Shown here one piece after another: positions 10 to 62,662 of a DNA stretch of 64,000 nucleotides. Below the pieces are notes generated by a model. It saw only the letters and a list, made by a program, of their open reading frames with translations. It was not told where the DNA came from and did not search any database. Numbering within the stretch: the first letter of the stretch is position 1; the number at the start of each line of letters is the position of its first letter. The DNA is from Tubulanus polymorphus. Lineage: Eukaryota > Animalia > Nemertea. The DNA lies in the NCBI RefSeq assembly GCF_964204645.1, contig NC_134031.1, positions 12,464,088 to 12,528,087 on the forward strand, given 5' to 3'. Position numbers and translations under genes: made by a program.

Positions 10-1479
10 TTATTTATTTTTTATTATTTTTTCTTGATATCTTTTTGATATCATATTCACTAACCCAAAAATAATAGCACTTACAACTGTAATTAAAAAT
101 AAAATAATATGTTAAGCAGCAGAGTTAAGAATATTACCTGCAGATTTCAATATAAAACCAACAATTGATGCAATAATTCCTGGTAAAGCTGCAGCAGATT
201 TTTTAGATAGTTCCCATAAATATTTTGCTAATTTCTTTAAACCATCTTTAACTTTATCTTGTATAGAATTATTATCATTCGGGGGTTTATTCGGTTTATT
301 GGGAGTAGGTGTAGATTTCAAAGAATTTGATATTGCTAAACCAATTGTTGTAAATAACATAGTTACAGCTGTTAGAATTGAAAGAATTGTTATTCCTTCT
401 AATTTAAATAATAACTTTATTCTATCTTTTAGTGATATTTCAGAATTTGGTTTAATCAACAAATCTTTAAAAATAACTTTTAATCTATTAATATTATAAT
501 CATATGATTTTAATAATAATTTAATTTCTTCTTTCTGTACTTCTAAATTATCTTTTAAATTATTAATTTCTTTTTCCAATCGTAATTCTTTTTGCCTATA
601 TTCTATTTCATCAATTACTTGATGATCTAAATCAGACTTTAATTGTTCTATTTCTTTATTTCTATCAGTTAATTCTTTTTCTAAAAATCTAATTTTAAAA
701 TCTCTTATACTTTTATTATGTGCAATTTTATCAGCTTCATTTCTTATACTAATAATTTCTCTAATTGCTTTATCAGAAAATATATTTAAATCTTCTAGTT
801 GTTGATCTGTTGCATCAATTAATCCATTCGGTAAAAGCTTTTCAATTGGAACTTTATTTGATTTAAGTTTACTAGTTTTCGAAGTTATATTCTGTTCAGA
901 AGTTGTTTCTGTTTCTGATTTCTTTTTGATTATTTCAAATAATTCATTAATTCTTTGTTTAAATACGTCTATATCATTACCAGTAAATTCTTGTTTTATA
1001 ACATCAGTTAGTACATTACTATTACTAATTCTTTTAATTCTATCTGGATCTAAATTACTCAAAGTTGATTTTGTTAATATTTTATTTTTATTATTTTTAT
1101 AAGTGATATCAATATAATAATCACCTTTCAAATGATAATACCATTTACCATTATCTAAAAATTTTAATTGATCTGCTAAAGGTCTAACGTCTTCATCATT
1201 TATGTTAAGTTTAGAATTTTCAATTATACGTTCTAATTTAGGTATTTAATTTAAATTATCTAAATCATGTTTTACTAAACCTGGGTCTAAATTTTCAGGA
1301 TTTAATTGTGATTCTGCATTTTTAATATAATCAGGCATATTTAAATTATTATTATATTCTGGCTCATTACCGTCATTAAAACTTGTTTCACTAAAATCAT
1401 TATAATCATCATCAATATATCCTTCATTATTATTTTCCATTTCTCCTATTTCATAATCTTCTACACCTTCTAATTCCAT
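10..1479 (-). pseudogene. Coiled-coil protein with hydrophobic/amphipathic C-terminus (conserved Maverick gene upstream of MCP)
   Basis: ORFs 1246..1479 and 112..1131 are in the same frame, split by a TAA. A second TAA at 112-114 replaces the E of AAEHIILFLI seen in copy B. Homologue at 44005..45459. Confidence 0.8.
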
Positions 1480-1496
1480 TTACATAATAAAAAAAA

Positions 1497-2794
1497 TTAA
1501 AATTTAAAATATAATATTCCACCTATAACAATTCCTATACAAGTTAAAGCTAATTTAGCATTTTCATGGGATTTATTATCATCATTTAGTTTAATTATTC
1601 CATGTTGAATATTATCAGTTTTAATATTTTCTGATGTATTATAATCTTTTATTTTAGAATCATTATCCAATTTAATATTCTTAGTTTTAGTTTCTGTTGA
1701 TTGAATATGTTTTTTATTTTTTTCACCTTCCATTAATTTTGGAGCAGTAATAATCTTTTTATTTATATCATTTAATCCAAATGAATTATTTATTGTTGCA
1801 GTTTTAATTAGATTATTATAACCAATTATATTTCCCATCTTTAATACTAAATCATTAGAAATAATTAATAGATTAGGGCCTATACAATAATTTAATCTAA
1901 TATGTGATTTATCTAAATAATTTTGATATCTTACAATGTTTTCTGGAATCGATCTATTTTTATCATTATGAATTGAATCTTCAAATAATACTTTGAATTG
2001 TTTCTGCGCATCAAATGAAGTACTATCATTTCCAACTATTGGTGATCTTGTTTCAACTTGTGCACCTAAAATACAAATTAGATAAGTTCTAATTGATTGA
2101 TTTATTCTTTGTATACCAGGTTTTGTAAAACCTTCACCATTATCTATAATAAAATTATTCCAACCATCATCATTATCGATTTTATAATAAGCTGAAATTC
2201 TATGCATATAATCAATTCTTTTTATTTCATACTCTTCACCGATACCTTGCAATTTACCATGCGCTCTAAAATCGGAATTAATATTTATATTAAATTCATT
2301 ACATATTTTATCAAACTTAGATAGATTAATATTATTATCCAATTCTTTAAAATATTTAGATCCGGGTAAAGGACATTCTAATTCATTTAATATAATTCTA
2401 ATTTGAAAGTATGCATGAAATCTAAATATTGTATGAATGAATTTTAAATCTGAATAAGACAAATTGTTATATAAATTATTCAAGTGATCATTCCAACTTA
2501 TACTACACCCTGTTGTTGCACAATAAACAGCAAAATTTAATTGATTCTGCCAATATTTCATATTAGATTTTATTTTATATATATATTATATTCATCTCGA
2601 GTAAAAGTAACTTCATATGTATTAAATATATTTTCCATTTTAGAAATGAAAAACTTCGTTTCAGTAACATAAATTTCTAAATTAATTAATGAAGGTGAAA
2701 CTACATTTTCATATGTTATAATACTATTAAAATCTATAGGTGGAATTGAATATCTATATGATTTATTATATTGGAAAGCTTTTGGAAACCCCAT
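1497..2794 (-). pseudogene. Conserved ~430-aa Maverick protein (WQNQLNFAVYCATTGC motif, C-terminal TM anchor)
   Basis: The 74-aa and 354-aa ORFs are joined in copy D (...IYKVKSNMKYWQ); here a 2-nt AT slip separates them. C-terminus LALTCIGIVIGGILYFKF is hydrophobic. Confidence 0.8.
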
Positions 2795-2810
2795 TTATAT
2801 AATTAAAAAA

Positions 2811-3245
2811 TTAATAATTTATTAATTCTTTTAATAATTTATCTTGTTCTTCAACTGTTATATTGCCATTTAAACTTGTTATATAATCTAGTGTATTCTT
2901 CAATTTATTAATTTCTTTTATATTAGTTTTAATTTTTTCTTTATTACTTTTTATATTTAATTTTGAACTTTCACCGGTTAATACACTTGATGATAATCCT
3001 AATACGCCAATTGATATAGCTAAAGGTGTTAATGGACTGAATATTGCTAGAAATGTTATTACAGAACTAATTGTGACCGAACCACTAATAATAAAATAAT
3101 ATATAATTTTAGATTTTAAATATTTTTTCTTTTTAACTTTTAAATCATTTTCAAATTCTAATATTTGTTTTTCGAAATATATTTTTAATTTAGTTTTATT
3201 TATATCATGAGGAATAATATCAATATTATCAACTTTATCTTCCAT
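2811..3245 (-). CDS. Two-TM plus coiled-coil membrane protein
   Basis: 144-aa ORF with two hydrophobic segments, TAAATG start, homologues at 25391 and 47227. Confidence 0.8.
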   Translation of the reverse strand: MEDKVDNIDIIPHDINKTKLKIYFEKQILEFENDLKVKKKKYLKSKIIYYFIISGSVTISSVITFLAIFSPLTPLAISIGVLGLSSSVLTGESSKLNIKSNKEKIKTNIKEINKLKNTLDYITSLNGNITVEEQDKLLKELINY

Positions 3246-3264
3246 TTATTTAGAAAAAAAATTA

Positions 3265-3684
3265 CTAATTAGTAAATCTATATGCTACAAATATAACAAT
3301 AACAGTTCCGCCTAAAATCCATATTATTTCATATTTCTGTTCTTTACTTGGGGTATAATAATCTGATATTGTAGGTTTATGTAGATGTAATTTTTCTTTA
3401 TTGGTTACCGCGTTATATAAACTCATTGCATCATCAACTGATTGAAAATCTCTATGTGAAATCTTCTGATCATATAATTCTTTATTGATGTAATCCATAT
3501 AGTTTTGCCTCTTTTCTCTGTATTCTACTGCTGCTTTATTATATTTCTCTAATGCTATGTTATGTCTTTTTTGTTCTTCTAATGAACTATTTTTATCTAT
3601 ATGTCTAAATAAATAACTACCACCAGTAAATGCTAAAGCGTTAACAATTGCTGTTCCTATAATAGTTAGAATTAAAGAAGCCAT
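3265..3684 (-). CDS. Small membrane protein (N- and C-terminal hydrophobic segments, central coiled coil)
   Basis: 139 aa, TAAATG start, intact homologues at 24951 and 47669. Confidence 0.82.
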   Translation of the reverse strand: MASLILTIIGTAIVNALAFTGGSYLFRHIDKNSSLEEQKRHNIALEKYNKAAVEYREKRQNYMDYINKELYDQKISHRDFQSVDDAMSLYNAVTNKEKLHLHKPTISDYYTPSKEQKYEIIWILGGTVIVIFVAYRFTN

Positions 3685-3708
3685 TTATTTAGATAAAAAA
3701 TTATGTAA

Positions 3709-3930
3709 TTATATAGGAGGAATATATTTTTGTTTTTCCAAATAATCAATAGTTAAATTAGATAAAGTAACTGCTAATGTTAATTTTAAAATATCATTTA
3801 TATCAAATCTATCAACATTAACACTTCCCATTTTAAATACTTTTTTTAATACCATTGAATAACCAACAGTTCCAACTGATAGTAATGCTCCATTATATAA
3901 GCCAGTTATTATCCACTTATTATCACTCAT
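3709..3930 (-). CDS. 73-aa hydrophobic protein
   Basis: Identical protein at 24701..24922; split copy at 47693-47770 plus 54866-55008. Confidence 0.8.
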   Translation of the reverse strand: MSDNKWIITGLYNGALLSVGTVGYSMVLKKVFKMGSVNVDRFDINDILKLTLAVTLSNLTIDYLEKQKYIPPI

Positions 3931-4290
3931 TTATTTATCAAAAAAATTACTATCTTCAAAATATTTAGTTGTCTTATTTATGATTAAATCAACATTTATT
4001 TCATTACTACTTTTATGATTATCGTATATTTCAATTATTATTTTTTTAATATCATCGATGATAAAATCTTCATCTAATTCATAAAATCTTAAAGATTCTC
4101 TAATTAAATTAGTAATCTTTTCTACATTTAAAGTTTCTTTATCTATTGTTTTTTCATACTCAAATGTTGTTTCATTAGAAAATGCAATATTTTTGATATG
4201 TATAATTACATCATTAATGTTAAATTTCATTTCTTTCTCGCGTTTAAAATCAAATCCTAAACATATACTCGGTCCAACAGTTATATTCAT
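3931..4290 (-). CDS. 119-aa conserved Maverick protein of unknown function
   Basis: Homologues at 24347 and 55372; its TAA stop abuts the next ATG. Confidence 0.78.
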   Translation of the reverse strand: MNITVGPSICLGFDFKREKEMKFNINDVIIHIKNIAFSNETTFEYEKTIDKETLNVEKITNLIRESLRFYELDEDFIIDDIKKIIIEIYDNHKSSNEINVDLIINKTTKYFEDSNFFDK

Positions 4291-4306
4291 TTATATAATG
4301 AAAAAA

Positions 4307-4367
4307 TTACTCTCTACATCTTATAACTAATTCATAAATTACAGGAAAGTTATTCAAATGAATTAAG
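4307..4367 (-). pseudogene. 3' remnant of the minor capsid (penton) gene
   Basis: Encodes ...LNNFPVIYELVIRCRE*, matching the end of 55389..56144. Confidence 0.75.
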
Positions 4368-7153
4368 ATCCAGGGGCGTCAAACGTCGCCGTATTCCTTA
4401 TATTGTTTCCTCACCGACTCGTAAATATCGCATGCACTTTGGTGGTACTGGTGTCAATTTTGACAACCTGATATCCGTGGACTGCACCAGTGATACTTCT
4501 GTAGAAAGGCATAGTTTGCCGCGTCCTATTCCGGTCAAAGTTACATCACGCGTTTTCAGGGCGTCACCTTCGAATGCTCGAGGAGTTAGTCAAGATAATC
4601 TTTGTAAGATTCCCCGAGTTTCCTTATATGTAGCTAAGAACTCTCTTCAATTTGGACTTTGGAACGCGCGTTCAGTGTCAAGTAAGATTCCCACAATCTG
4701 TGATTCCATACTTGCCAACAACATAGGTGCTTTGGCTTTAACCGAAACCTGGCTTAAATCCAGAACTGAAAAATCCACAATCAGTGAATTCAAATCGTGT
4801 CTCAGCGGCTATCACTTCATTAGCAATCCTCGTATAGGAAAGACGGGCGGCGGTGTAGGAGTCATTGCACTTAAGTCACTTAATATCAAGGTGATTTCAG
4901 GCGGCAGTTTTAGCACCTTTGAACATTTGCTTGTAAAGATTCGGCACAGAAGCCAGCTCATTAATTTAGTAGTTGTTTATCGTCCACCTGCTCAGACCAC
5001 AAAGACATTTCTTGTTGAAATTTCAACGTTCCTTGAGACTTTTTTGATATCGCCGGGTCGTTTGATAATAGTAAGTGATTTCAATTTTCACGTTGACGAT
5101 ACCGTGCGACGCGATGCCCAACAGTTTCTTGATCTATTACGCAGTTTTGGGTTCGTCCAACATTTACAAGGACCGACCCATCAGAAGGGCCACACCCTAG
5201 ACTTAGTGATCACTCGTGAAACCGATAAATGTGTATCAAATTTTATCGTTGATACGTCATTGCCGTCAGATCATAGTCTTATTGTATTTAATTCGTTTTT
5301 ATCTAAACCGTTTCCGTTGACGGTCGAACGTGTGTCGAGGAACCTCCGAGCGGTGGATAAGAACGTGTTACTGGAAACAGTTCGCAACATATCTTTTGAG
5401 AATTCTGAGACCGGGACTGTTAATTCTTTGGCGAATGACTATGATGCTAAGATGAAGTCAGTTTTGGACTATCTAGCGCCAGAAAAGACTGAAACTTTCA
5501 CCGATAAGCCTCGCGCTCCATGGTATGGACCCAATCTCCAGGCTGCTAGGCGTGTTTTACGTAGCCACGAACGGAAGTGGATCTCATCTAAATTAGAGGT
5601 CGATAAACAGATTTATCATGCCAATCGGATTGAGTACCATAGTTTGTTGCAAGAAGCCTCAAGATCCTATCATCGCGGTCGGATAGCAGACTGTACCGAT
5701 CAGAGAAAGTTATTCACCCTTGTCGATGAATGGACAAGTGATAAGAAGTCTGTAATTTCCGCGCTGCCAGAGCACAGCAATCCCAAAGAACTGGCTAATC
5801 GATTTTCTGATTTTTTTGTTGTGAAAATTGGCAAACTATGTGATTCTTTTATTGATGTACCACTCCCTCGGTTTCCTTTTATAGATCTTGGTCATTCCTT
5901 CAATAGTTTTAGTACGGTTACTGAAAAGTCTCTCAACGACATTATCACTTCAATGACCAATAAGTCATGTTCAATTGATCCGATTCCCACTACTTTTCTA
6001 AAACAATGTTTACCTGAAGTTTTACCAAAGTTAGTCGATATTTTTAACTTGTCCCTCACTGAGGGCACAGTTCCTGACTCTTTCAAAATAGCAACAGTCA
6101 GGCCATTGTTGAAAAAGCCAGGTCTTAATTCAAATGTTTTATGTAACTATCGACCTGTCTCTAATCTACCTTTTATCAGTAAAGCTATAGAGCGGCATGT
6201 ATTGAATGATTTGAGTCAGTATTTATCTGATAATAACCTCTTCTCAACGTTTCGGTCTGCCTATAGGAAGTTCCATAGCACCGAAACGGCAGTTTTAAAA
6301 GTACACAATGATATTTTGTTAGCTCTTGATAATCACGATGAAGTAGTGTTCGTCTTATTAGATCTAACTGCGGCTTTTGACACCATAGATCACGGTATTC
6401 TATTGGTTGAATCGGTATGGAGTGAAAGATGTTCCTTTAGAATGGTTTAGGTCATATTTAGAAAATAGGTATCAGCGTGTTGTGATTGACAGATCGTCAT
6501 CTCAAAATGTTAAACTCATGTGTGGTGTACCTCAGGGGAGTGTACTAGGCCCTACACTTCTCAGTTTATATCTTGCACCAATCGAAGAAATTATTATTAA
6601 ACATAAACTCGACTTAATGTTATATGCCGATGATACCCAGATTTATTTCGTCTGCAAGAGTTGTGCAGCTTCTAAATCAAGAGTTGAGAAGTGTGTTGAC
6701 GAAATAAAAGAATGGTTGAAGTGCAATAGACTTGTTTTTAATGATAGTAAGACAGAGGTTATACATTTTACGTCAAAATTTCGTAAGGGAGACAAGCTAT
6801 CAAGTATTAGAATAGGAGATGACAGTATAGCTACTTGTCAGTCAGTCAGAGATCTTGGCTTTTATTTCGATCATAATTTTACCATGTCTTGTCATATATC
6901 TTACGTCTGTAGATCGATTTCTTACTCCCTGCATCGCATTGGTAAAATACGCAAGTTTTTAGATCGCACTAGCACCGAAAGATTGATTCACGCTTTTCTA
7001 ACTTCCAAATTAGATTACTGTAATAGTCTTCTCTACGGTCTTCCGAATTGTTATATTTCTCGCCTACAAATGCTTCAAAATTCTGCCGCACGCTTAGTCA
7101 CTCTAACTAAGAAGCACGAGCATATCACTCCTATACTGTATGAACTACATTGC
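4368..7153 (+). mobile_element. Non-LTR retrotransposon (L2/CR1 group), truncated at both ends
   Basis: GC jump; APE endonuclease motifs (WNARS, LTETWL, GGGVG, VYRPP, DFN, SDH) and RT motifs (NYRPVSNL, DLTAAFDTIDH, GVPQGSVLGP, YADDTQ). Ends inside HITPILYELH. Confidence 0.95.
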
Positions 7154-7159
7154 AATTAA
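4432..7159 (+). pseudogene. LINE ORF2 (endonuclease-reverse transcriptase), frameshifted near 6407 and 3'-truncated
   Basis: ORFs 4432..6450 and 6407..7159 carry consecutive parts of one EN-RT protein. Confidence 0.92.
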
Positions 7160-7765
7160 TGGAAATCCACAGTAAAATGTACCATCTTCAGTTGATAAAT
7201 CATAAACATAATCTGTTGGGTTATATATTTCAAATAAATCTTTAACTTCTTCAGTTAAATCTTTTTCTGTGCAGCTTAAATTAAAGCAATTTGGTTTAGA
7301 TTTAATCAATCCAATATTCATATTGAAGCCTAATTAATTACATAATATATTTAACCCTGATATAGCAACTTTTCCTTTTTGAGCTAAAGATATTGCTGGA
7401 GAACTCGTTAATTTTTTAGCACCATCTGCTGCGTAGAATCCAATGAAGAACCATTTTCTTAAATTATTTTTTGCATTTAATACATAATCAGGAACTATCT
7501 TCTCTTTTGTTGAAGTATTACTTTTCACTATTGCATGAATATAGAATTCATCATTATATTTTATAGCAAAATCTTTAGGATTATTTACAAGTATTCTATA
7601 AACTGCTGATGATTTCATAACATCCATGATTTTAAATGTTTTATTTGGATAAACTTCTTCACAATATTTCTTTATTCTTTCTAATAATATCAAATCTTGA
7701 TTGCATAAATACCAACAATATTTATTACCCCAAACATATTTATACACACCTGCTGAACCATCACT
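7154..7765 (-). mobile_element. Intein remnant with LAGLIDADG homing endonuclease inside pPolB
   Basis: Block C tail SDGSAG, block E FFIGFYAADG and C-terminal splicing block F DYVYDLSTEDGTFYCGFPLI. One in-frame TAA after ILCN. Confidence 0.88.
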
Positions 7766-10700
7766 AAATCATAAAAACTATTATTCATTAATTTGAAATC
7801 TTTTTTCAAAATCTGTTTTTGATATGGTTCTCTGTTGAGTATTGAAATCTATATATTTTTCTAACCACTTCGATTTATTAAATTCAATATATCTATGTAC
7901 TTTCTTTAATTTCATTCCTTGTTTTAGATAAAATTTTAACATTTTATAATGAACAATATAATTGTATTTATTATTTTGAGTAAGTATTAATTTTTCTGTA
8001 AAAACATGATCTTTCGGTTTTATTTTCTTCTGGTATTCACTTAAATAACTATCATCTACAGTTAAATGTTCTGGGCAATAAGGTAAGTTTCTTGTTTTAA
8101 ACTTTATATTTTCAGGATATTCTAAATCAACTACAAAGAAATTACCAATTGGTGCTTCATCTTTTAAACTCGCAATTGCGCTTTCCCAATCAGTTTTATC
8201 ATCATTTTCAACTTCTGTTAATATAAAATTTTTATATGGTTGAGATTGCATCATTGCCCAACCATATAAATTATTGGCGTCAATATATAATAATTTATAT
8301 TCATCATTTGCTTTAAAATACCTATCTCCCATAACACCACTAATTCCACCTCTAATTGATTTTTCAAATAATAAAACCATGTCTGGTTCTTTTAATAAAT
8401 CTAATTCTACATTTGTGTATTTTAAACCACATTGCCAGGTTAAACCAGGACTTGAATAACAATAACAAGGATCAACATTAAAATTATTTAAATTAACTTC
8501 TCTAAATTTTTCAAATATGTCAGCCAATATCATAACATCTGATTTTAAATATAAATCTACTAATTCACCATGATTTTTCATCTTAAAATGGTTCCAAATA
8601 TTTAATGTTCTATTAAACACTTCATCTTTCACATACTCCTCTTTTAATTGATCATAAAATTGATCTTTTAATAATTATGTTACATTAAAATCATCATGTG
8701 TTTTATAAAATGAATAAGGAATTGCACCTTTATATCTCAATAATTTAAAATCTTGTTCATTTGGATAATAATATTGAGTTATAACAAAATCATTATCAAC
8801 TAAACTTTTTGATAAATTATCTAAGGAACTTGCTAGAAATCTATAAGAATCTAAAAATCTAATGCAACCAAATTGAAATGAAATATAATTTTCAGATGTT
8901 TTAGCTAATAGTTTAAAATCATATTTTCTTACATTTACACCATTCATAGCATTATATTCTTCTATTTCTTGATTAATTGTGCCCAATTTCCTTGATAATT
9001 GTTTTATAAATAGATGGGTATCATAGCCTGATAAATTATGAAATAATATTGGTACGAAATTAACTTTCTTAGCCTGTAAATTACAATCTTCATGAGCAGC
9101 TCCATGATATTTTGAATTTAAATGATCATGATCTCTAACTTTTTTATCAAATGAATAAAAACGTTTTTCACAATAACAACAATGAGTTGCATAATTAAAA
9201 TCAATTTCATCTTCTTTTGTCATAACTATTCTTTTATTTTTGTTTAATAATTTTGCAATATCACTTTCTAATTCAATCATTTTGTCATAAAAATCATTAA
9301 CTACATCTTCACCTCTAAAAGAAATATATTGACTTTCATATAATTCGGGATAATTTGATTTGATGTAAATTCCATAAGCAGCAGCTCTTTGATGAACTTT
9401 TTTAATTGTATTTATAATTGGCGGGTCTTGTGTTGTGTCTTCATTTATTTCATTTCCTTTATCCATTGATTTTAATAATTGCTTTTTGTTATATATTTCT
9501 TTTCTTGATCAGTTAATTCTTTTTTCAACGATTCAAAATCCCCGTAAATTACAAATGGAACAATATTCTTAATTTATGATTAGTAAATTTCAATTTATAA
9601 CCTTTTTCTGTTGGCATTATTAATTTACAAAAATCTTTATTATCACATAATTCTTCATCTTTTAGTAACGCATTCTCAGTTCTAAATTTAGATAAACATT
9701 TTCTACATAGATACATTTTATGACTGTTAAAATCACTTTCTGTTCTAAAGAATAAATCAATTTGTTTTAACCACATATAATGTTCATTTTCATCTTTTTT
9801 GTAATATAGCAAATCTATAGCATTTTCATCATCATAATATTCTGTTAAATATAAAGCTTCCAATGTATAATCTTTGATATTTTCACCTTTTGTCTTTGGT
9901 AATTGCATTAATTCGAATACATTTATTTTTAAATTATTAATTTTTTCTATTTGTGGTATCATTTTTATAGTTACTGGATATTGATCAATTTTATATAATG
10001 TTTCATATTTCCGGTAATTTGTTATTCTAAAACTATGCGTAATATCTTCTGTTGGGTGTAAGCAACTAATAATTGACCATAGAAAACATTTATTATCTTC
10101 ATTTTGAACATTTATTACTGTTTTTGTTGAAAATGGTAATTTAATATAAGATGATGCTTTAATATCCTTTTCTGTTGTAAAGTTTGAATCATTTTTAAAC
10201 ATTGTTTTACTTTTTGATGTTTTATTCCTTTTTGTATTATAAACATTTAAATCTAAAAATATAATTTCATTTAATGATAAACCAGAACCCTTAAATATCT
10301 TTCTTCAATATGACGTTTAAATTCATTAAATATTTTTTCTAACTTCTCTTTTATTTGCGTTTTTTAAATTATTTCTTCAGAGAGTGTTTGAATATAATAA
10401 TCCATTTTCTCTTCTGACTTTAAAAAACTTACTTTCCCAGAGATACTAATTTTTGGATATTCAACATCTGTTATCAAATCTAGTATTTTTTCTATTATTT
10501 CATTAAATTTACTATAATCTTCTATTGTTGTACCTTTAAAAAATCTAAATATAATAGCTGCAGGACCAATTTTACTACGTAATGTTTCTAATATTTCAAT
10601 TGTATCTTTTATTTCTAGTGAATCAATATAATTTCTAACATTTTCCATGTAAGGTTTATTTGAAAAGGATTTAGTTTTTGAAGTTGTTTTTTTTTACTTT

Positions 10701-11028
10701 TTGAGGTTTATCATCGAAATAATCTTTTCCTAAAACATTATTACTCAAATTTTGATGGTGTTTTTGTGATTCGAGATGTCTATTATAATTCCTTTTTACT
10801 ATAAATTCATTACAATCTTCACATTTTATTTCATCCACATTCATATTTTCTAATCGTTCTTTTCTTTCATTGGAATTTTCTGAAGTTTCAAAATCTATAA
10901 CATTTTTTATATGATTTGAAGATTTTTCATGACGCGATTTTTGAGATTTATCAATGTATTTTTTACAATATGGACAATAATATTGATTTTCATTAACATC
11001 AATTTGTTCTGTCTTATTCTCTCCAATT
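7154..11028 (-). pseudogene. pPolB: Protein-primed family B DNA polymerase (copy A), fragmented, intein-containing
   Basis: N-terminal zinc fingers, SSYIKLP/NEDNKCFLWS, ExoII FHNLSGYD, FLDSYRFL, ExoIII YLKSDV, motif A YIDANNLYGWAM, motif B KLMNNSFY. The 3' end is lost at the LINE junction. Confidence 0.93.
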
Positions 11029-11089
11029 TATAAGGAAAAAAAATTACTTGTGGTGATGAGTGGGGATTACTTCCCCTTGTATATAACAA

Positions 11090-19050: not shown

Positions 19051-19301
19051 CTTAATAATTTCATATAAATGAACATTATTTACATGAATTTCATTTATTT
19101 TAAAATCATTTATATGTTGATTACAAAAGTGTGAGTAAAGTGTGAGAAATAATTCATATTCTAACAGATTTCGAATAAAAATATAAGTAAAATAAATGGA
19201 TAATTAAAAGAATATAGAAGTGTGAGTGAAATAACTCATTTCATGTTATATGTAAGGGAAAAATCCCACTCATCACCACAAGTAATTTTTTTTCCTTATA
19301 A

Positions 19302-22192
19302 ATGGAGGAGAATAAGGCAGAACAAATTGATGTTAATGAAAATCAATATTATTGTACATATTGTAAAAAATACATTAATAAATCTCAAAAATCACGCCAT
19401 GAAAACGCTAAAAATCATAGAAAAAATGTTATAGATTTTGAAACTTCAGAAAATTCCAATGAAAGAAAAGAACGATTAGAAAATATGAATGTGGATGAAA
19501 TAAAATGCGAAGTTTGTCATGAATTTATAGTAAAAAGGAATTATAATAGACATCTCGAATCACAAAAACACTATCAAAATTTAAATAAAAATGTTTCAGG
19601 ATCAGAATATTTTGATGATAAACCTCAACAAGTAAAAAAATCAACCTCAAAAACTAAATCCATTTCAAATAAACCTTACATGGAAAATGTTAGAAATTAT
19701 ATCGATTCACTAGAAATAAAAGACACAATTGAAATTTTAGAAACATTATATAGTAAAATTGGTCCTGCAGCTATTATATTTAGATTTTTTAAAGGTAGAA
19801 GATTTTCAATAGAAGATTATAGTAAATTTATTGAATTCATGGAAAAAATACTAGATTTGGTAACAGATGTTGAATATAAAAAAATTAGTATTTCTGGGAA
19901 AGTAAGTTTTTTAAAGTCAGAAGATAAAATGGATTATGATATTCAAACACTCTCTGAAGAAATAATTTAAAAAACGCAAATAAAAGAGAAGTTAGAAAAA
20001 ATATTTAATGAATTTAAACGACATATTGAAGAAAGATATTTTGAGGTTTTTCGTTTAACATTGAATGAAATTATATTTTTAGATTTAAATGTTTATAATA
20101 CAAAAATGATTAAAACATCAAAAAGTAAAACAATGTTTAAAAATGATTCAAACTTTATAACAGAAAAGGATATTAAAGCATCAAGTTATATCAAATTACC
20201 ATTTACAACAAAAGCAGTAATAAATATTCAAAATGAAGATAATAAATGTTTTCTATGGTCAATTATTAGTCGCTTACATCCAACAGAAGATATTACGCAT
20301 AGATTTAGAACAACAAATTACCAGAAATATGAAAAAAAAATATAAAATTGATATCCAGTATATCCAGTAACTATAAAAATGATTCCTAAAATAGAAAATG
20401 ATAATGATTTAAAAATAAATGTATTCGAATTAATACAATTACCAAAGACAAAAGGTGAAAATATTTAAGATTATACATTAGAAGCTGTATATTTAACAAA
20501 ATATTATGATGATGAAAATGTCATGATGATTGTTATATTACAAAAAAGATGAAAATGAACATTATATGTGGTTAAAACAAATTGATTTATTCTTTAGAAC
20601 AAAAAGTGATTTCAACAGTCATCATAAAATTTATCTATCTAGAAAATGTTTATCTAAATTTAAAACTGAGAATACATTATTAAAAGATAAAGAATTATGA
20701 GATAATAAAGATTTTTGCAAATTAATAATGCCAACAGAAAAAGATTATAAATTGAAATTTACTAATCATAAATTTAAAAATATTGTTCCATTTGAAATTT
20801 ATGGGGATTTTGAATCGTTGAATAAAGAATTAACTAATCAAGATAGAAAAGAAATATATAATAAAAAGCAAATTTTAAAATCAATGGATAAAGGAAATGA
20901 ATTAAATGAAGATGTAATTCAAGATCGACCAATTATAAACACAATTAAAAAAGTTCATCAAAGAGCTGCTGCTTATGGAATTTACATAAAATCAAATTAT
21001 CCCGAATTATATCAAAGTCAATATATTCCTTTTAGAGGTGAAGATGTAGTTAATAATTTTTGTAACAAGGAATGAAATTTAAGAAAGTACATAGATATAT
21101 TGAATTTAATAAATCGAAGTGGTTAGAAAAATATATAGATTTCAATACTCAACGGAGAACCATATCAAAAACAGATTTTGAAAAAGATTTCAAATTAATG
21201 AATAATAGTTTTTATGATTTAGTGATGGTTCAGCAGGTGTGTATAAATATGTTTGGGGTAATAAATATTGTTGGTATTTATGCAATCAAGATTTGATATT
21301 ATTAGAAAGAATAAAGAAATATTGTGAAGAAGTTGATCCAAATAAAACATTTAAAATCATGGATGTTATGAAATCATCAGCAGTTTATAGAATACTTGTA
21401 AATAATCCTAAAGATTTTGCTATAAAATATAATGATGAATTCTATATTCATGCAATAGTGAAAAGTAATACTTCAACAAAAGAAAAGATAGTTCCAGATT
21501 ATGTATTAAATGCAAAAAATAATTTAAGAAAATGGTTCTTCATTGGATTCTACGCAGCAGATGGTGCTAAAAAATTAACGAGTTCTCCAGCAATATCTTT
21601 AGCTCAAAAAGGAAAAGTTGCTATATCAGGGTTAAATATATTATGTAATTAATTAGGCTTCAATATGAATATTGGATTGATTAAATCTAAACCAAATTGC
21701 TTTAATTTAAGCTGCACAGAAAAAGATTTAACTGAAGAAGTTAAAGATTTATTTGAAATATATAACCCAACAGATTATGTTTATGATTTATCAACTGAAG
21801 ATGGTACATTATTTTGATTTTAGCAATTATCCCAAAGATCATGAACTATTTAGTAATGATAATGAAAAGATTCCTGGTAAGTTTAAAGATGAATTAGGGG
21901 GTGATGAAATGATTGAATTTGTTGGGATAAGAAGTAAAATGTACAGTTATAGAACAAAAGATCATGAAGCTAAAAAGTTAAAAGGAATAACAAAGCACGT
22001 GGTTGATAAACATATAGAATTTCAAGATTATATTAAGTGTTTATATAACTCAATTGTAATGAAACACAAAATGAATTGTTTAAGATCAGAAGATCACGAG
22101 ATGCACATTAATGAAGTTGAAGTTTGAATCCATTTGATGATAAAAGGCATATTTTAGATGATGGAATAAAAACATTACCTTATGGTTATTAA
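19302..22192 (+). pseudogene. pPolB: Protein-primed PolB (copy B) with stops, frameshifts, internal deletions and intein remnant
   Basis: ExoI IYGDFES, motif B KLMNNSFY and C-terminal PGKFKDE, RSKMYSY, KKLKGI, PFDDKR. About 1.4 kb is deleted near 21062 relative to copy A. Confidence 0.93.
21221..21810 (+). mobile_element. Intein remnant with LAGLIDADG endonuclease (second copy)
   Basis: The 137-aa ORF differs from copy A at one residue and continues to DYVYDLSTEDGT before a deletion jumps to HYFDFSNYP. Confidence 0.88.
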
Positions 22193-23514
22193 AACATAAA
22201 ATCAATATCATCAAACTCGAAATCACTATTGGTTTCTTCTTTTTCATTTAATTGTTCTTGTATAATTTGTTTATGTTCTTCCATTTCATTTTTCTTATTT
22301 AAATAAAGTTCTATCTTGTACCACATTTCATCTCGCTCTCTCTTTGTTTCTTTTTGTTCGTTAATTCATCAAATGGAATCATAATATCGATGTTTAAAAA
22401 ATTTACAATCTTATTTAAAAAGAATTCATAATTAATTAAATCTGTTCTATTATCCACATAATATCTTAATATTTTTTTGAATGTTTCTTTTATATTTTCC
22501 ATATCTTCTTCTGTTAATTTAGGTTTTTTATAATAATCGTTAAATAATAAATATAAATACATTTTCTTTTCTTTTGTGTTACATGTTGATGGAATAATTG
22601 TTTTTATTATATCTTTCTTAGTTATTTAACCATTTTTATTTTATATCATTTTCATTTTTTCAAGCCATTGCTTATATTCTGGTGTATGATCTTCCATAGA
22701 AAATATCTTAAAAATTTCATCTAGATATTTTGATTTTGGTTCTATAAGAATATCTCTAGTTTTTTCATCACCCCATAAATTCTTTTGCCATCCACATTCA
22801 TTACAAAATATCACAGGACCTTCTTGTCTTAAGTACTCATAAATACATTGTGGGCATTTTTTTCTATCATTTCTTGGTTATAGATCTTCATTTAGCTCTT
22901 GGTATTTACTAACGTTTTCTTTATTTTTTATTGTTCTATTATGTAGATTTAAATTATTTGTTGTAATAATCAATTTACAATATTTACAATAATGTTTTTC
23001 TTACTAATTCATTATATTGTTTTTCTAACTTTTCAACTGCTTCTTTATTATCTGGAAACGTTTTCTCATATTTTATTTTTTCTAATAAACTATTTTTTCT
23101 TTCATTGAATTCGGTTTCAAATTAATTAGAAATTTTATCTATATGTACTTTACGAAATTGATGATTCTCCCAATCTTCTATATTTTCAGGGTTATATTTT
23201 ATTCGACAAGGCTCACAGAAATTATCTTTTATATTATCCTTATCATGGAATAAGAAAGGTCTTTTCCAAATAATTTCAGGTTCAACTTCAACAGAATTAC
23301 TATTACTTTCGTTACTATCAACATTAACCGTTGCGTCATTAATTTTACACTTCTCTGAATGTTTTTTAACATAATTTCTTGAGAATAATTTATTACAATT
23401 TGGGCAGTTAAATTTAGGGGGTTTATAATTTTCATCATGTTTTCTCATATGTCGAACCATATTACTTTTTCTGAGAAGTTCGCCGCAAATTTCACATGCT
23501 ATCTTCTCATCCAT
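22189..23514 (-). pseudogene. Multi-C2H2 zinc finger fused to a VLTF3 (poxvirus A2L)-like late transcription factor
   Basis: Manual read-through: C2H2 fingers, zinc ribbon CPQC-x13-CNECG, then RTDLINYEFFLNKIVNFLNID..PF..L...KKQRERDEMWYKIE. Four in-frame stops and two slips. Confidence 0.68.
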
Positions 23515-23583
23515 TTATTTAGGAAAGATTTTATTAAAATTAATTTTTAGTGATGAGCGATAATTTTTTTTATGTTATAAATA

Positions 23584-24330
23584 ATGGTAGAATTAAAAGA
23601 ATACAGAATATTTGTTGATTCTAGAAGACTTACAAATTATAAATCACATAATTTACTAGTACAATTAGATAGAGAATTTAAGAATTGTGTAGATTTGAAA
23701 TTAGTTAATGTAAGTTTATGTAATTCTTTTCATAATATATCGAATAAAAGTCTTGATCATTTAGCTTTTAAGATTCATGTTAGAAATTTGAATCAATGGT
23801 TTCATCTTTATCTAAAACCAGGATTATATAATTTAGAAACATTAGCGCAAGAAATTAATAGAAGAGCTCGTTTAAAAATAGGTGCAGCTGCTAGATTTGA
23901 ATTAAATTTATTAAAAGTGATAGTTCGAATAAAATAAGAATAAAGTTAACTAATGAACAACATAGATTTCTAGTAAGAAAACCTTTAGCTAAACTGTTTG
24001 GAATTCTTCCAGATAGAGATTATTCAAGTATCGAAACTTATACAAATTTAATGACTTTTACACACTTTTATATTTATTGCAATTTAATTGATCCTACAAA
24101 AACATTTGAAGCAACTAAAGATACAATTTGTAATTCTAGTATATTTTACCATTGAAGAATGTTAAACGATTTGGAACTCAAATAAATTATAATTTAGCTG
24201 AGTGTGATTTTAAACCTTGTATTTCACATTTCAATAATTTCAAATTAGAAGTAAGCATCATAATTGATACTTAATTGATTTGAATAACTTTCCTGTAATT
24301 TATGAATTAGTTATAAGATGTAAAGAGTAA
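23584..24330 (+). pseudogene. Minor capsid protein (penton), frameshifted
   Basis: Homologous to the intact ORF 55389..56144. Confidence 0.8.
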
Positions 24331-24346
24331 TTTTTCTGATATATAA

Positions 24347-24696
24347 ATGAATTTAACTGTTGGGTCGAGCATATGTTTTGGATTTGATTGTAAACGTGAG
24401 AAAGAAATGAAATTTAACATTACTGATGTAATAACGCATATTAAAAATATTGTATTTTCTAATGAAACAACATTTGAGTATGAAAAAAACAATAGATAAA
24501 GAAACTTTAAATGTAGAAAAGTTAACTAATTTAATTAGAGAATCTTTAAGATTTTATGAATTAGTTGAAGATTTTATTATCGATGATATTAGAAAAATAA
24601 TAATTGAAATATATACAAATGAAACTATGAAATAAACGTTGAAATATTCATCACTAAGATAACTAAATATTTTGAAGATGGTAATTTTTTTGATTA
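24347..24696 (+). pseudogene. Homologue of the 119-aa protein, frameshifted
   Basis: Starts MNLTVGSSICFGFD with TAAATG. Confidence 0.72.
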
Positions 24697-24700
24697 ATAA

Positions 24701-24922
24701 ATGAGTGATAATAAGTGGATAATAACTGGATTATATAATGGAGCCTTACTATCAGTTGGAACTGTTGGTTATTCAATGGTATTAAAAAAAGTATTTAAAA
24801 TGGGAAGTGTTAATGTTGATAGATTTGATATAAATGATATCTTAAAATTAACATTAGCAGTTACTTTATCTAATTTAACTATTGATTATTTGGAAAAACA
24901 AAAATATATTCCTCCTATATAG
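24701..24922 (+). CDS. 73-aa hydrophobic protein
   Basis: Identical to the 3709..3930 protein. Confidence 0.8.
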   Translation: MSDNKWIITGLYNGALLSVGTVGYSMVLKKVFKMGSVNVDRFDINDILKLTLAVTLSNLTIDYLEKQKYIPPI

Positions 24923-24950
24923 GAAGTGCATATTTTTTTTTACTAAATAA

Positions 24951-25370: not shown

Positions 25371-25390
25371 TAATTTTTTTTGTTAAATAA

Positions 25391-25843: not shown

Positions 25844-25859
25844 TGTTTTTATTATATAA

Positions 25860-26273: not shown

Positions 26274-26296
26274 ATAATTGATTTTTTGTTAGATAA

Positions 26297-34257: not shown

Positions 34258-35350
34258 ATGAAAAAAGAACAATATTTAAGAGATTTATATTATAACCCAG
34301 AGAGTGAAGTATCATATTCTAACGTTTCAGAATTATGGAATAAAATTAAATCTGATAATGAAAATGGTGATATAAAATATAGCGAATTAAAATCATGGTT
34401 ACAAAATCAACCAACATATCAAATCCATAAGAAAATGGATAAAACTTATTTAACAAGAAAAGTTATGGTTTCATATATTGATCAACAATGGCAAGCAGAT
34501 TTAATTGACATGAAGAACTTAGAAGAATACAACAAAGGATATTTCTGGATATTAAATGTTATAGACATATTCAGTAGATACGCATGGTCAATTCCAATCA
34601 AAAATAAAACTGGAATAGAAGTGAGAAATGCTTTTAAATCAATATTTAAAGAAGCTATTCCAGATAAGATACAATTTAATGAAGGTAAAGAATTTTGTAA
34701 CAAACATTTTTAAAAAACTATTATCTGATAACGATGTAGATTATTTTTCAACACACTCAGATAAAAAAGCATCTATTATAGAAAGATTTAATAAAACATT
34801 GAAAACTAGAATGTGGAAATATTTTACTGCTAATGAAACATATAAATATATCGATATATTAGATGATTTAGTGAAAGGTTATAATAATTCTAAACATAGT
34901 TCTATAAATATGACACCTATACAAGCTAGAAAAGAAGATAATTCAGAAATAGTTTGGAATAATTTATATGGAGCATTTGTTACACACGATTTCGGTGAAC
35001 CTAAATTTAAAATTGGACAACATGTCAGAATATCTAAATATAGAAAAACATTTTATAAAGGTTATACCCCTAATTTTACAGAAGAAATATTCAAGATTAA
35101 AAAGATAATATTAACTAAACCATTTGTTTATAAACTAGAAGATCTAAAAGATGAAGAAATATTAGGTTATTTCTATGAACAAGAATTATCACTTGTACCA
35201 AATCCAGATGAAATAGAATACAAAATAGAAAAAGTATTGAAAACAAAAAATCTTAAAGGAAAAAAGTATTCTATGGTGAAATATAAAGGATATGATGATA
35301 CATTTTATGAATGGGTTTTATCTAGTAAAATTAAAAGAATAAATGAATAA
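34258..35350 (+). pseudogene. RVE integrase-chromodomain, frameshifted near 34710, second catalytic D changed to N
   Basis: ORFs 34258..34713 and 34628..35350 compared with intact 61574..62662 (IQFNEG versus IQFDEG). Confidence 0.92.
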
Positions 35351-35954
35351 AGATTTATTTATATTCGAACCGCATAATATGTTAGTTACTGGTGTAACAA
35401 ACTGTGGTAAAACACATTTCATATTAGATTTGTTAGAAACTATTTATAAGAATCATTTTGATAATATAATATTATTCTGCCCTACTTATGAAATGAATAA
35501 AACATATAATAGAGATATAGTTAAGATAAAAAAGTTTATTATATTAGATCCTAAAACAGTAAAAGAAAATTTAGATAATTGTATTAAAATAGCAATTGAT
35601 ACTTATAAAGGATCAAATACATTATTCATTTTAGATGATTGCGCAAATTTACATGATTCAAAAGTGAGAGAAAGTGAGTTATGTTATTTAGCTTTCTCCG
35701 GGAGACATTTCGGGATAACAACATGGGTTTTAAATCAAAAATATAATTCAATTGTTAAAGACTTTAGGGAGAATATAAGATTTCTAGTTTTATTTTATAA
35801 CAAAGATAGAAAATCTATGCAACAATCATTGGAAGAAAATCAAATTATACCTACTGAATTACATGATGAATATATGAATAAATTAAAGAATAATAAAGGT
35901 TCAAAATTATTAATGAGACTTTAATTTCCCTATGAATATAAATTTATAAAATAA
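35343..35954 (+). pseudogene. A32/FtsK-type packaging ATPase, stop ~10 codons early
   Basis: GVTNCGKT, FILDD, SGRHFGI; TAA replaces the Q codon of copy E. Confidence 0.9.
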
Positions 35955-42739: not shown

Positions 42740-43992
42740 CTAATACATAACACTATTTAATTGAGAATTTACAATATTTAATTGCGCGTCAGATATAATA
42801 TAAATGTGCATTTTGAAATTTTTGATTCCTTTATTCTTTGTCATGAATAATTGTATTCCATCTTTAGTGTTCTGTAGTTTTTTTCCAGAACCATGTAATG
42901 AATTATCCTCTGTTGTTCTAAAATCTAACCATAATGCATATTTATTACCGGTATAATAATCAATTTGATTAATATTACAATTTTCAGATGAAAATTTATT
43001 ACATTTTTCATTCATAAAATGTTTTCTAATTTCTGGCCATTGATCAATCATTCTCATTCCTTGACAAAATATTTTATTTGCTATTCCTTCGATAGTTATT
43101 TCTACTTTTGTTATTTCAGGATTATAATAATTATCAACATTTATTGCGCCATTAGTATATGTTGCAATGGTAAAAAATATTAATATACCTTTAATAGATC
43201 TTCTTGGGAAGTTAATATTCTCATTAATAATTTCATCATTTGCATTAATAGTTACAGTTTTAAATTTATCAATATAATCATATAATAATGAAAATCCTTG
43301 ATTGTATTGAGTTTGAATTATACTTGAAATATTTTCATCAGTTACTGTATCATATTCTAAACATATATTCGATAATTTATAACTCATATCTTTAACAACG
43401 CTAGATATTACAATTTCATTTACAGGAGCAAATGTTATTTCGAATATAACATCTTCTTGAATTGCATATTTATATAAAGGTGCATTATTATTTATCGATT
43501 CAAAGTCTAATGGAATTTTATATTTGCTTCCATATATACTTTTTATTAATTTATCTATAGCATTAGTTAATATTGCATTATGCGCTTCTGATCTTAATTT
43601 ATTTTGGTTTTCTGATTGGATGCCTTGAAATATCATATTATTTCTATTTTCTTTAGTTAACCATAAATCTTCATAATGCATAAATAAATTATAATCATCT
43701 AATGAGAAAACTGTTTCTGGACCATCTTTATAGTTAATTTTTTAATCAAATATCTTCCAACATTATCAACAACATAATTATTATCATTACCGATTACTTT
43801 CATATCGGCTGATAAATAAATACTATTTGGAACATAAAAAGTATTTTGTGTTAACCGAGGAATTCTAACATATAAAGTTTCATCGGGATTAATATTAGAA
43901 GGGTTATGAGTAATTATATGATGTGATCTTTCTGCTTTAATAGCATTAGATATTCTATGATTCTTAGAAGGATTGATATAACTCCCACTCAT
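42740..43992 (-). pseudogene. MCP: Major capsid protein, frameshifted near 43720
   Basis: The 97-aa and 313-aa ORFs are homologous to 26297..27544. Confidence 0.8.
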
Positions 43993-55388: not shown

Positions 55389-56144
55389 TTACTCTCTACA
55401 TCTTATACCTAATTCATATATCACAGGAAAGTTATTCAAATCAATTAAATAACCATTATGATTTCTTATTTCTAATTTAAAATTATTAAATTTAGGAATG
55501 CAAGGTTTAAAATCACATTCTGTTAAATTATAATTTATTTGAGTTCCAAATTGTTTAACATTTTTTAGCGGTAAAATATTTAGTATACTAGAACTACAAA
55601 TTGTTTCTTTAGTTGCTTCGAAAGTTTTTTTAAGCTCGATTAAATTGCAATAAATGCAAAAGTGTGTAAAAGGTATTATATTTGAGCTGCCTTCTGCGTT
55701 TCCAGTAACTGAAAGCGGTTTAATTCCTAACATTTTAGCCAGTGGTTTGTTTACCATAAATTTATGTTGTTCATTAGATATCTTTAATCTTATTTTATTA
55801 GTACTATCAATTTTATTAAATTTAATTTCAAATACAGAAGTGCCCCCAATTTTCAACCGAGCTCTTCTATTAATTTCTTGCGCTAATGATTCTAAATTAT
55901 ATAATCCTGGTTTTAAAAATATATGAAACCATTTATCTTGATTTCTCATATAAATCATAAACCCTCTATGTTCAAAAGTTTTATCTGATATATTATAAAA
56001 AGAATTACATAAACTTATATTAACTAATTTTAAATCTACACAATTCTTAAATTCTCTATCTAATTGTACTAGTAAATTATGAGATTTATAATTTGTAAGT
56101 TTTCTTGAATCTACAAATATTCTGTATTCTTTTAATTCTACCAT
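55389..56144 (-). CDS. Minor capsid protein (penton, single jelly-roll)
   Basis: IFVDSR, KPGLYNL, LAKMLG, IYCNLIE and LEIRNHNGYLIDLNNFPVIYEL, the usual Polinton/PLV penton pattern. Confidence 0.82.
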   Translation of the reverse strand: MVELKEYRIFVDSRKLTNYKSHNLLVQLDREFKNCVDLKLVNISLCNSFYNISDKTFEHRGFMIYMRNQDKWFHIFLKPGLYNLESLAQEINRRARLKIGGTSVFEIKFNKIDSTNKIRLKISNEQHKFMVNKPLAKMLGIKPLSVTGNAEGSSNIIPFTHFCIYCNLIELKKTFEATKETICSSSILNILPLKNVKQFGTQINYNLTECDFKPCIPKFNNFKLEIRNHNGYLIDLNNFPVIYELGIRCRE

Positions 56145-56544: not shown

Positions 56545-57091
56545 TTAACACGTTAGAATTCTTTTCATTATCTCGTTCTCTTTTGTTTCTTCTCTTTTAA
56601 ATTTTAAGTATTCAACTAAATTGCAACCATAAGCAACTGTATGAATTCCATCATCTAAAATATATCTTTTATCATCAAATGGGTTTAGACTTATCTTTTC
56701 AATTTCTTCAATAAACATTTCATGATCTTCAGATCTTAAACATCTCATTTTATGTTTTCTAACTTCTTCATTGAATATACAATTGATGTAATCTTTGAAA
56801 TGAATATTCTTTTCTACTACACTTTTGGTTATTCCTTTTAACTTTTTAGCTTCATGTTCTTTAGTTTTATATGAATACATTTTAGATCTAATACCTATGA
56901 ACTCTATCATTTCTTCACCACCTAATTCATCTTTGAATTTACCAGGAACTTTTTTATTATCATTGCTAAACAATTCATGATTTTTAGGATAGTTACTGAA
57001 ATCAAAATGATGTTTTAATGTTTTTAAATCATCAGTTATGTTATTAGTTTTTATCTTTAATATGTAACTGTCGGTATCAAAATATAATATT
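56545..57091 (-). pseudogene. pPolB: pPolB C-terminal fragment with intact, intein-free motif C (YFDTDS)
   Basis: Reading upstream of the listed ORF gives ILYFDTDSYILKIKT...HFDFSNYP...PGKFKDE; cut by the insertion at 57092. Confidence 0.92.
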
Positions 57092-61570: not shown

Positions 61571-61573
61571 AAT

Positions 61574-62662
61574 ATGATGAAAAAAGAACAATATTTGAGA
61601 GAGTTATATTATAACCCAGAAAGTGAAGTATCATATTCTAACGTTTCAGAATTATGGAATAAAATTAAATCTGATAAAGAAAAAATAAAATATAGTGAAT
61701 TAAAATCATGGTTACAAAATCAACCCACATATCAAATTCATAAAAAGATGGATAAAAAATATTTAACAAGAAAAGTAATGGTTTCATATATTGACCAACA
61801 ATGGCAAGCTGATTTAATTGATATGAAAAACTTAGAAGAATATAACAAAGGATATTTTTGGATACTAAATGTTATAGATATATTCAGTAGATACGCATGG
61901 AGTATCCCGATTAAAAATAAAACCGGTATAGAAGTTACAAATTCTTTCAAATTAATATTTAAAGAAGCTATCCCAGATAAAATACAATTTGATGAAGGTA
62001 AAGAATTTTATAACAAACATTTTAAAAAACTATTAACTGATAACGATGTAGAATATTTTTCAACACATTCAGATAAAAAAGCATCTGTTATAGAAAGATT
62101 TAATAAAACATTGAAAACTAGAATGTGGAAATATTTCACCGCTAATGAAACATATAAATATATCGATGTGTTAGATGATTTAGTTAAAGGTTATAATAAT
62201 TCTAAACATAGTTCTATAAATATGAAACCTATACAAGCTAGAAAAGAAGAAAATTCAGAAATAGTTTGGAATAATTTATATGGAGCATTTGTTACACATG
62301 ATTTTGGAGAACCTAAATTTAAAATAGGACAACATGTTAGAATTTCTAAATATCGAAAAACATTTTATAAAGGTTATACCCCTAATTTTACAGAAGAAAT
62401 ATTTAAAATTAAAAAGATAATATTAACTAAACCATTTGTTTATAAATTGTTTGATTTAAAAGATGAAGAAATATTAGGTTATTTTTATGAACAAGAATTA
62501 TCATTAGTACCAAATCCAGATGAAATAGAATACAAAATAGAAAAGGTATTGAAAACAAAAACTCTTAAAGGAAAAAAGTATTCTTTGGTGAAATATAAAG
62601 GATATGATGATAAATTTAATGAATGGATTTTATCTAGTAAAATTAAAAGAATAAATGAATAA
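61574..62662 (+). CDS. RVE (DDE) integrase with C-terminal chromodomain, intact
   Basis: Catalytic D (WQADLID), D (IQFDEG) and E (VIERFNKTLK); chromodomain YKIEKVL...YSLVKYKGY...NEWI. Confidence 0.95.
   Translation: MMKKEQYLRELYYNPESEVSYSNVSELWNKIKSDKEKIKYSELKSWLQNQPTYQIHKKMDKKYLTRKVMVSYIDQQWQADLIDMKNLEEYNKGYFWILNVIDIFSRYAWSIPIKNKTGIEVTNSFKLIFKEAIPDKIQFDEGKEFYNKHFKKLLTDNDVEYFSTHSDKKASVIERFNKTLKTRMWKYFTANETYKYIDVLDDLVKGYNNSKHSSINMKPIQARKEENSEIVWNNLYGAFVTHDFGEPKFKIGQHVRISKYRKTFYKGYTPNFTEEIFKIKKIILTKPFVYKLFDLKDEEILGYFYEQELSLVPNPDEIEYKIEKVLKTKTLKGKKYSLVKYKGYDDKFNEWILSSKIKRINE

Follow-up and report, generated by a model that had tools for sequence, protein, structure and literature searches.

A probable homing-intein remnant in a Maverick-like polymerase gene of a nemertean and its predicted self-splicing relatives in protein-primed DNA polymerases

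DdDP inteins occur in Phycodnaviridae, Iridoviridae and Mimiviridae (PMC5784728), and the 351 aa intein of Mimivirus R322 occupies the pol-c site YGD/TDS, the slash marking the point of insertion (PMC549080). The eukaryotic inteins surveyed previously were located in fungal nuclear DNA, in algal plastids and in NCLDV or unclassified viruses (PMC5784728). Furthermore, DNA polymerases of giant viruses endogenised in algae and labyrinthulids have been found to contain inteins (PMC10710043). These resemble the inteins considered here in being viral DNA polymerase inteins within eukaryotic genome assemblies, but their hosts are algae and protists, their host proteins are called viral-like, and the main text, as available, treats neither Polintons nor animals.

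Endonuclease domains of the HNH and VSR types have been reported in the protein-primed PolB (pPolB) of Polintons (PMC10748475), and one sentence in PMC11071308 suggests that endonuclease domains in this polymerase stem from intein invasions. Like these domains, the relatives of the window sequence described below carry an endonuclease domain inserted in pPolB; in contrast to the HNH/VSR domains, it is part of a complete Hint and LAGLIDADG intein that interrupts the catalytic motif. The word intein is absent from the available main text of PMC10748475, and inteins are likewise unmentioned in the available main texts of PMC8097293, PMC8502044 and PMC11131425 on Mavericks/Polintons. No description of a Hint-bearing intein in a pPolB was found in the openly accessible main-text literature on inteins and Polintons/Mavericks (including PMC12220804, PMC5718144 and PMC3671162).

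The intein remnant and the polymerase genes of the window

The window, a stretch of 64,000 nt from Tubulanus polymorphus, is AT-rich and contains a LINE, satellites and several degraded Maverick-like copies. An intein remnant (copy 1; 7155..7765, minus strand) was delimited by alignment to relatives and extends from endonuclease block C to splicing block F. All motifs quoted in the initial annotation were recovered on the minus strand in a single frame running from 7765 to 7154, which bears out its recognition of blocks C to E and F. The read-through translation (204 residues, with X at a stop codon) reached scores of 610 with the intein of a pPolB (P0003) and 273 with the intein of an RNA-primed PolB (P0007), far above the maxima of 70 and 59, respectively, obtained with shuffled sequences (n=300), and over 202 columns the identity between copy 1 and the P0003 intein is 59%. 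The surviving end of LAGLIDADG block C (SDG; 7757..7765, minus strand; alignment and motif table) and LAGLIDADG block E (FFIGFYAADG; 7421..7450, minus strand; alignment) both retain the catalytic aspartate. Block F and the start of block G (DYVYDL...GFPL) were aligned at 7157..7213 (minus strand), and an in-frame stop codon (7334..7336, minus strand) falls between the KGK and LGFNMNI motifs. The alignment covers only the end of block C to the start of block G, and the N-terminal Hint half and the last two to three residues are absent, as had been proposed. Block F is the only one of the splicing residues and blocks kept in the window copies, and both splice junctions are deleted.

In a comparison with domain models, as proposed in the initial annotation, the fragment alone produced a weak LAGLIDADG_3 match below the Pfam cut-off (residues 105-152; E=0.011, 16.4 bits versus a cut-off of 22.5) and no Pfam match to a Hint domain; full-length relatives such as P0003 match both. 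A PDB sequence search with the fragment yielded 0 matches at E≤10, and an NCBIfam search found no intein family and one weak match to an archaeal RNA polymerase model.

Comparison with P0003 showed that at 7766..7770 (minus strand) a deletion has joined pPolB motif B to intein block C, the deletion comprising ~243 residues by P0003 numbering (~94 of extein and ~149 of intein). Motif B (KLMNNSFY; 7771..7794, minus strand, from the translation) lies directly upstream, which agrees with the earlier description of an intein following motif B of a pPolB; however, it is read in a different frame from the intein, another frameshift separates it from the upstream pPolB ORF, and the stop codon at 7334-7336 had been overlooked. 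With SFY upstream of the joint, motif B itself was considered as the insertion site and rejected, all relatives using motif C. The frameshifted N-terminal part of the polymerase (N-extein) occupies 7781..11027 (minus strand; identified from ORFs and a PF03175 match below the cut-off, E=2.6e-5), and its ORF at 7781-8674 is 71-72% identical to the intein-free pPolBs P0291, P0294 and P0295. At the 3' end, the frame of copy 1 runs into an oppositely oriented LINE at ~7152-7155, and the last two to three intein residues and the C-extein are therefore missing. This APE-RT LINE (4327..7152, plus strand), identified by Pfam (RVT_1 and Exo_endo_phos), self-comparison and LINE contigs ending at 7152, stands in place of the C-extein and downstream genes.

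Self-comparison revealed a second remnant (copy 2; 21221..21810, plus strand) with the same 5' deletion and stop codon, which is 98.4% identical to copy 1 over 765 nt. Its block F is joined out of frame to a C-extein (21807..22127, plus strand; 72-74% identical to P0291/P0295) that lacks its first residues including the TDS motif; copy 2 is thus flanked by pPolB extein on either side. Both copies in the window are dead: the N-terminal half was lost in a shared ancestor, and neither splicing nor homing is possible. A third pPolB is represented by a 3' fragment (56545..57090, minus strand; ORFs and alignment) with an empty site (YFD/TDS; junction 57076/57075). Taken at the sequence level, these comparisons support an interpretation of copy 1 as the remnant of a Hint and LAGLIDADG intein of the pol-c site family.

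Sequencing reads came from DNA run X5, of which ~12% was read and whose genome shares at most 48% of sampled window words, so that the run may derive from a relative of the source. At position 7770 of the deletion joint, 120 X5 reads depart from the window sequence, and another letter is present at the stop codon in 128 of 134 covering reads; both features are therefore peculiar to the window copies. The empty site of the third pPolB is crossed unbroken by 296 X5 reads that depart only at 57092, while depth across it drops from ~614 to ~464 and three X1 contigs depart within nine bases, which fits filled and empty pPolB families side by side. X5 depth was ~60 over the LINE, 120-230 over the intein and 260-660 over the extein, values that are not a measure of copy number because divergent families map unevenly.

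Hallmarks of Mavericks/Polintons in the window are an integrase (rve and chromo domains; 61571..62662, plus strand; Pfam) and a packaging ATPase (Pox_A32; 35343..35924, plus strand; Pfam, E=1e-12), accompanied by the pPolB fragment with its sub-threshold PF03175 match. Because the copies are rearranged, integrase and ATPase belong to the window as a whole and are not tied to copy 1. Furthermore, a putative major capsid protein (42740..43741, minus strand) was identified by ESM Atlas feature matches of 0.95-0.98 with a low recognition score, some of the matching clusters containing Capsid_NCLDV in 13-18% of their members, and a putative minor capsid (penton) protein (55389..56144, minus strand) by ESM Atlas matches of 0.97-0.98, including a Sputnik V18/19 cluster. 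Pfam matched neither a capsid family nor an adenain-type protease in the 23 ORFs of the window that were scanned, and an inverted-repeat scan of 1-36500 for element ends (TIRs, TSD) gave paired copies and small palindromes without clear ends. The intein-bearing element probably has a metazoan host, for which the LINE and satellites of the window are indirect signs. The window resembles described Mavericks/Polintons (polintoviruses, adintoviruses; PMC8097293, PMC8502044, PMC11131425) in its degraded, clustered copies, its pPolB, its integrase of the rve type and its A32-like ATPase, to which the putative major and minor capsid genes may be added.

Full-length relatives at polymerase motif C

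A phmmer search of 1.84 billion representatives returned 492 matches at E≤0.001, and the 150 listed among these comprised 131 RNA-primed PolBs, two pPolBs and 17 unclassified proteins. A search of longer proteins gave six matches among 699 candidates, the best being P0003, a 1693 aa pPolB (PF03175, Intein_splicing and LAGLIDADG_3) with a 354 aa insert at YGD/S...N/TDS. Two further protein searches (117 matches among 5265 candidates and 831 among 5450; 120 listed) and the membership of protein clusters added the full-length intein-bearing pPolBs P0283, P0284, P0285, P0286, P0287, P0301 and P0402 as well as shorter ones. A metagenome scan contributed one locus (L001), and no relative was found in a viral contig collection scanned with the intein alignment, P0287 and P0402.

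In total, 12 full-length pPolB-type inteins of 333-354 aa were obtained, all inserted exactly at motif C (xxD/S...N/TDS), which agrees with the YGD/TDS site that had previously been inferred for the window copy. A pPolB extein is present on at least one side in 11 of them, while P0005 is an intein-only ORF. The nearest relatives of the window copy are in-frame inteins in pPolBs and not free-standing endonucleases. Ser1, the block B Thr/His, both LAGLIDADG aspartates, the terminal Asn and Thr+1 are retained in 12/12 inteins. The penultimate residue is His in ten, Ser in P0003 and Lys in P0301, and block B of P0173 is shorter by one residue. Pfam Intein_splicing was matched above the cut-off in P0006 and P0284 and below it (E≤1.3e-5) in six other full-length inteins, but was absent at E≤0.001 in P0286; LAGLIDADG_3 was above the cut-off in relatives, and PF03175 in P0003, P0284 and P0301.

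The AlphaFold model of the P0003 intein (pLDDT 93.5, 60-row alignment) retrieved the homing inteins TliVMA, PI-PfuI and PI-SceI as top Foldseek matches in the PDB (E=5e-18), and the predicted fold thus matches those of solved homing inteins. In BFVD, the best named viral folds were NCLDV PolBs, i.e. those of a phycodnavirus (31% identity), Pandoravirus (24%), Megavirus courdo11 (24%) and Marseillevirus (21%). Mimivirus is not supported as the specific donor, the Megavirus courdo11 PolB being 24% and the phycodnavirus PolB 31% identical in this fold search. By site, residues and modelled fold, the relatives qualify as canonical class 1 inteins for which splicing is predicted, and the YGD/TDS site together with their grouping with RNA-primed PolB inteins at the same site assign them to the pol-c allele. 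The pPolB inteins share with NCLDV PolB pol-c inteins this site, a similar length (333-354 versus 351 aa), Ser1/Asn/Thr+1 and the LAGLIDADG blocks. However, the latter sit in an RNA-primed Pol-delta-like enzyme, whereas the former interrupt the PF03175-type polymerase of an integrating Maverick. The cluster of P0284 comprises 136 members on contigs of up to 1 Mb, so these intein-bearing copies are likely located in host chromosomes. The only named pPolB relative, from Mytilus galloprovincialis, is intein-free, and several intein-bearing pPolBs have a separate Endonuclease_7 domain.

Homing, origin and alternative explanations

Among the 15 listed of the 136 members of the P0284 cluster, the 14 others comprise six filled and five empty alleles and three sequences that are too short. 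The nine others in the P0287 cluster comprise two filled alleles, two empty alleles, one with an intein start and four fragments. The exteins of P0287 (filled) and P0427 (empty) are identical at 1253 of 1256 positions (99.8%), and all three differences lie at most five residues from the site. Each of the five empty P0284 members differs from P0284 at eight of the 21 columns that surround the site (hypergeometric p<1e-5 each, assuming an even spread of differences), whereas filled-versus-filled controls from the same cluster (n=6) show no difference within ten residues of it. As the five empty alleles share the same differences, the flank signal amounts to two independent cases. Filled and empty pairs differ mainly around the site, as homing predicts. 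The differences may reflect either co-conversion of flanks or the survival of cleavage-resistant empty alleles, and an active endonuclease would be needed under both; extein adaptation for splicing is an alternative reading.

Intein phylogenies were calculated with FastTree (152 inteins after removal of near-duplicates; 20 pPolB, 123 PolB and 9 unclassified) and IQ-TREE (54 inteins picked from this set; 13 pPolB and 41 PolB). Both place two pPolB groups among giant-virus-type PolB inteins: clade I (support 100/100; ten rows, i.e. the window intein, P0023, P0003, P0301, P0284, P0173, P0006, P0283, P0285 and P0402) and clade II (100/100; P0286, P0287 and P0196). The AU test does not reject a common origin for the pPolB inteins as a whole (p=0.274), their monophyly being neither shown nor rejected. 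Clade I is sister to a PolB group with a support of only 53/93. The two share a G-x-P-L-I/L ending of block F/G, which occurs in 17 of 123 PolB inteins. Identity between the pPolB inteins and the best PolB inteins of giant-virus type is 44-50%, while the best-scoring PolB inteins of the window fragment (39-40%) lie outside the sister group of clade I. In the closest PolB group, P0333 is located on a giant-virus MAG contig and is the only PolB relative tied to such a contig; the others could be endogenised or cellular. Among 50,697 phage records one match was found, with 27% identity, in an uncultured 484-kb phage.

The extein tree (quick mode) contains 41 rows, 11 filled and 30 empty, after seven of 37 empty candidates lacking the motif pattern were dropped. 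Inteins are patchily distributed on it, with six changes of intein status, at least five of which are forced by strong branches, and the window extein is nearest to empty alleles (73%). In the comparison of intein and extein trees called for initially, the branching of clade I mirrors the extein tree except for P0301: the polymerase of P0301 reaches no more than 22% identity with other pPolBs, while its intein falls inside clade I. This topology suggests one jump between distant pPolB classes, although P0301 comes from a single 5.3-kb contig. As the intein trees are unrooted and contain no archaeal or phage pol-c outgroups, the direction of transfer is deduced from the far greater diversity on the PolB side. 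On these sequence comparisons, pPolB inteins were likely acquired from giant viruses, with an old entry from large-DNA-virus PolBs that probably took place twice. The initial annotation envisaged homing between an NCLDV PolB and a Maverick pPolB. The closest non-Maverick relatives are indeed in giant-virus-type RNA-primed PolBs, but a direct or recent jump to the window element is not supported, the window intein belonging to a pPolB-specific clade (100/100); since this clade largely follows the pPolB tree, the NCLDV jump is old and lies upstream of the window element. Homing between distant PolBs has been argued to need a cascade of intermediate targets (PMC549080), and the same caution applies to entry from PolB into pPolB.

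We consider it probable that copy 1 represents what is left of a canonical, now dead homing intein (Hint and two-motif LAGLIDADG) whose intact relatives occupy motif C (xxD/TDS) of Maverick/Polinton pPolBs, are predicted to splice themselves out, likely home and likely originate from giant-virus PolBs. Splicing at this site restores the catalytic motif (PMC549080). A precursor would be translated with the intein inside pPolB, and Ser1, the block B Thr/His and the terminal Asn together with the extein Thr+1 would excise the intein and rejoin the catalytic DTDS, so that the polymerase would survive and precise retention would be enforced. Once released, the endonuclease may cut the empty site of another Maverick genome that is resident in the same cell or has co-infected it; with the filled copy as repair template, the intein and some of the codons next to it would be passed on. 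For the first entry, a Maverick and a large DNA virus would have had to share one cell, with motif C as almost the sole sequence in common; afterwards the intein may have been inherited, lost and, at least once, transferred between distant pPolB classes.

A more far-reaching scenario, which we advance tentatively as a serious possibility, is that active canonical homing inteins reside in animal nuclear genomes, that on at least two occasions the pol-c intein passed from giant viruses into Mavericks, and that it is still homing among Maverick copies (leaving co-conversion tracts or cleavage-resistant empty alleles) and jumping between distant pPolB classes, providing a record of animal cells infected by Mavericks and large DNA viruses together. 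Canonical inteins in protein-primed polymerases would add one class of host protein and one group of viruses to the known range of inteins, which probably entered animal chromosomes as Maverick passengers. A site-specific parasite common to both would physically document an encounter between Mavericks and giant-virus-type genomes in a single cell and thereby bear on the question whether Mavericks behave like virophages. Furthermore, the filled and empty allele pairs would allow homing and the resistance of targets to be tested on natural variants, and the intact inteins could serve as tools for splicing and cutting in eukaryotic cells.

The agreement of clade I with the extein tree apart from P0301 and the AU test, which does not reject one origin, would also suit a single, very old pPolB invasion followed mainly by vertical descent and repeated precise loss, with homing now rare or absent and the flank differences caused by extein adaptation to splicing. 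We regard this history as unlikely, given that both endonuclease aspartates are kept in 12/12 inteins, that the only differences between P0287 and P0427 (3/1256) are all beside the site and that P0301 needs a lateral jump. Transfer in the reverse direction, or a third source (an archaeal, phage or protist PolB) for both virus groups, appears very improbable: although the intein trees lack a root, the pol-c allele family is also found in archaea (PMC549080) and a relative exists in the uncultured phage, this single match among 50,697 records is 27% identical, compared with 44-50% for giant-virus-type PolB inteins, and the PolB side is much more diverse.

It is barely credible that chance or an assembly error joined an endogenised giant-virus fragment, or an endonuclease that stands alone, to a Maverick gene in the window. 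Motif B and the intein are read in different frames, no splice junction survives in the window and no listed contig piece spans the whole stretch, but the full-length relatives largely refute such a fusion, the nearest of them being in-frame inteins in pPolBs; in addition, copy 2 has pPolB extein on both sides, and the intein region is covered at a depth of 120-230 in the DNA run of the related genome.

Further observations on the window and its relatives

Copies 1 and 2 are part of a large inverted head-to-head pair (39-11088 and 19244-26286) with arms ~8 kb apart and several Maverick genes per arm. The 98.4% identical 765-nt tract (7176-7940 versus 21049-21810) adjoins 1853 nt of upstream sequence with an identity of only 91.4%, a contrast that suggests recent gene conversion or recombination between the copies. 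The LINE at 4327-7152 is nearly intact, with one frameshift near 6400 and the 3' end lacking, and its family looks young, as the reads at 6600-7152 differ at few fixed positions. A short inverted repeat next to the third pPolB fragment (57087-57137; read depth ~4000 versus ~700) is likely the end of a MITE that truncated the pPolB gene.

Imperfect palindromes of ~400 nt are located at 29171-29594, 58716-59159, 63268-63679 and 35958-36863 and flank ~5-kb units containing a weakly HNH-like ORF, a 200-aa ORF, the integrase and the ATPase; they are possible hairpin ends or a reduced element. A 1.5-kb tandem duplication (31445-32939 and 32941-34436; 99.4% identity) contains a (nearly) identical 202-aa ORF in each unit. 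Furthermore, ~31-nt satellite arrays with long pseudo-ORFs occur in both orientations at 37717-40184, 49391-50045, 51377-53487 and 58471-58716.

The empty allele P0421 has YTDCDS as motif C instead of xxDTDS and is possibly an endonuclease-resistant or inactive variant. Outside polymerases, P0273 on a JGI contig is an Anp1-family (PF03452) glycosyltransferase-like protein with a related intein-like insert. In the large RNA-primed PolBs P0024, P0025, P0029, P0030, P0033, P0039, P0064, P0115 and P0171 the fragment matches in two to three stretches, which suggests more than one related intein per polymerase.
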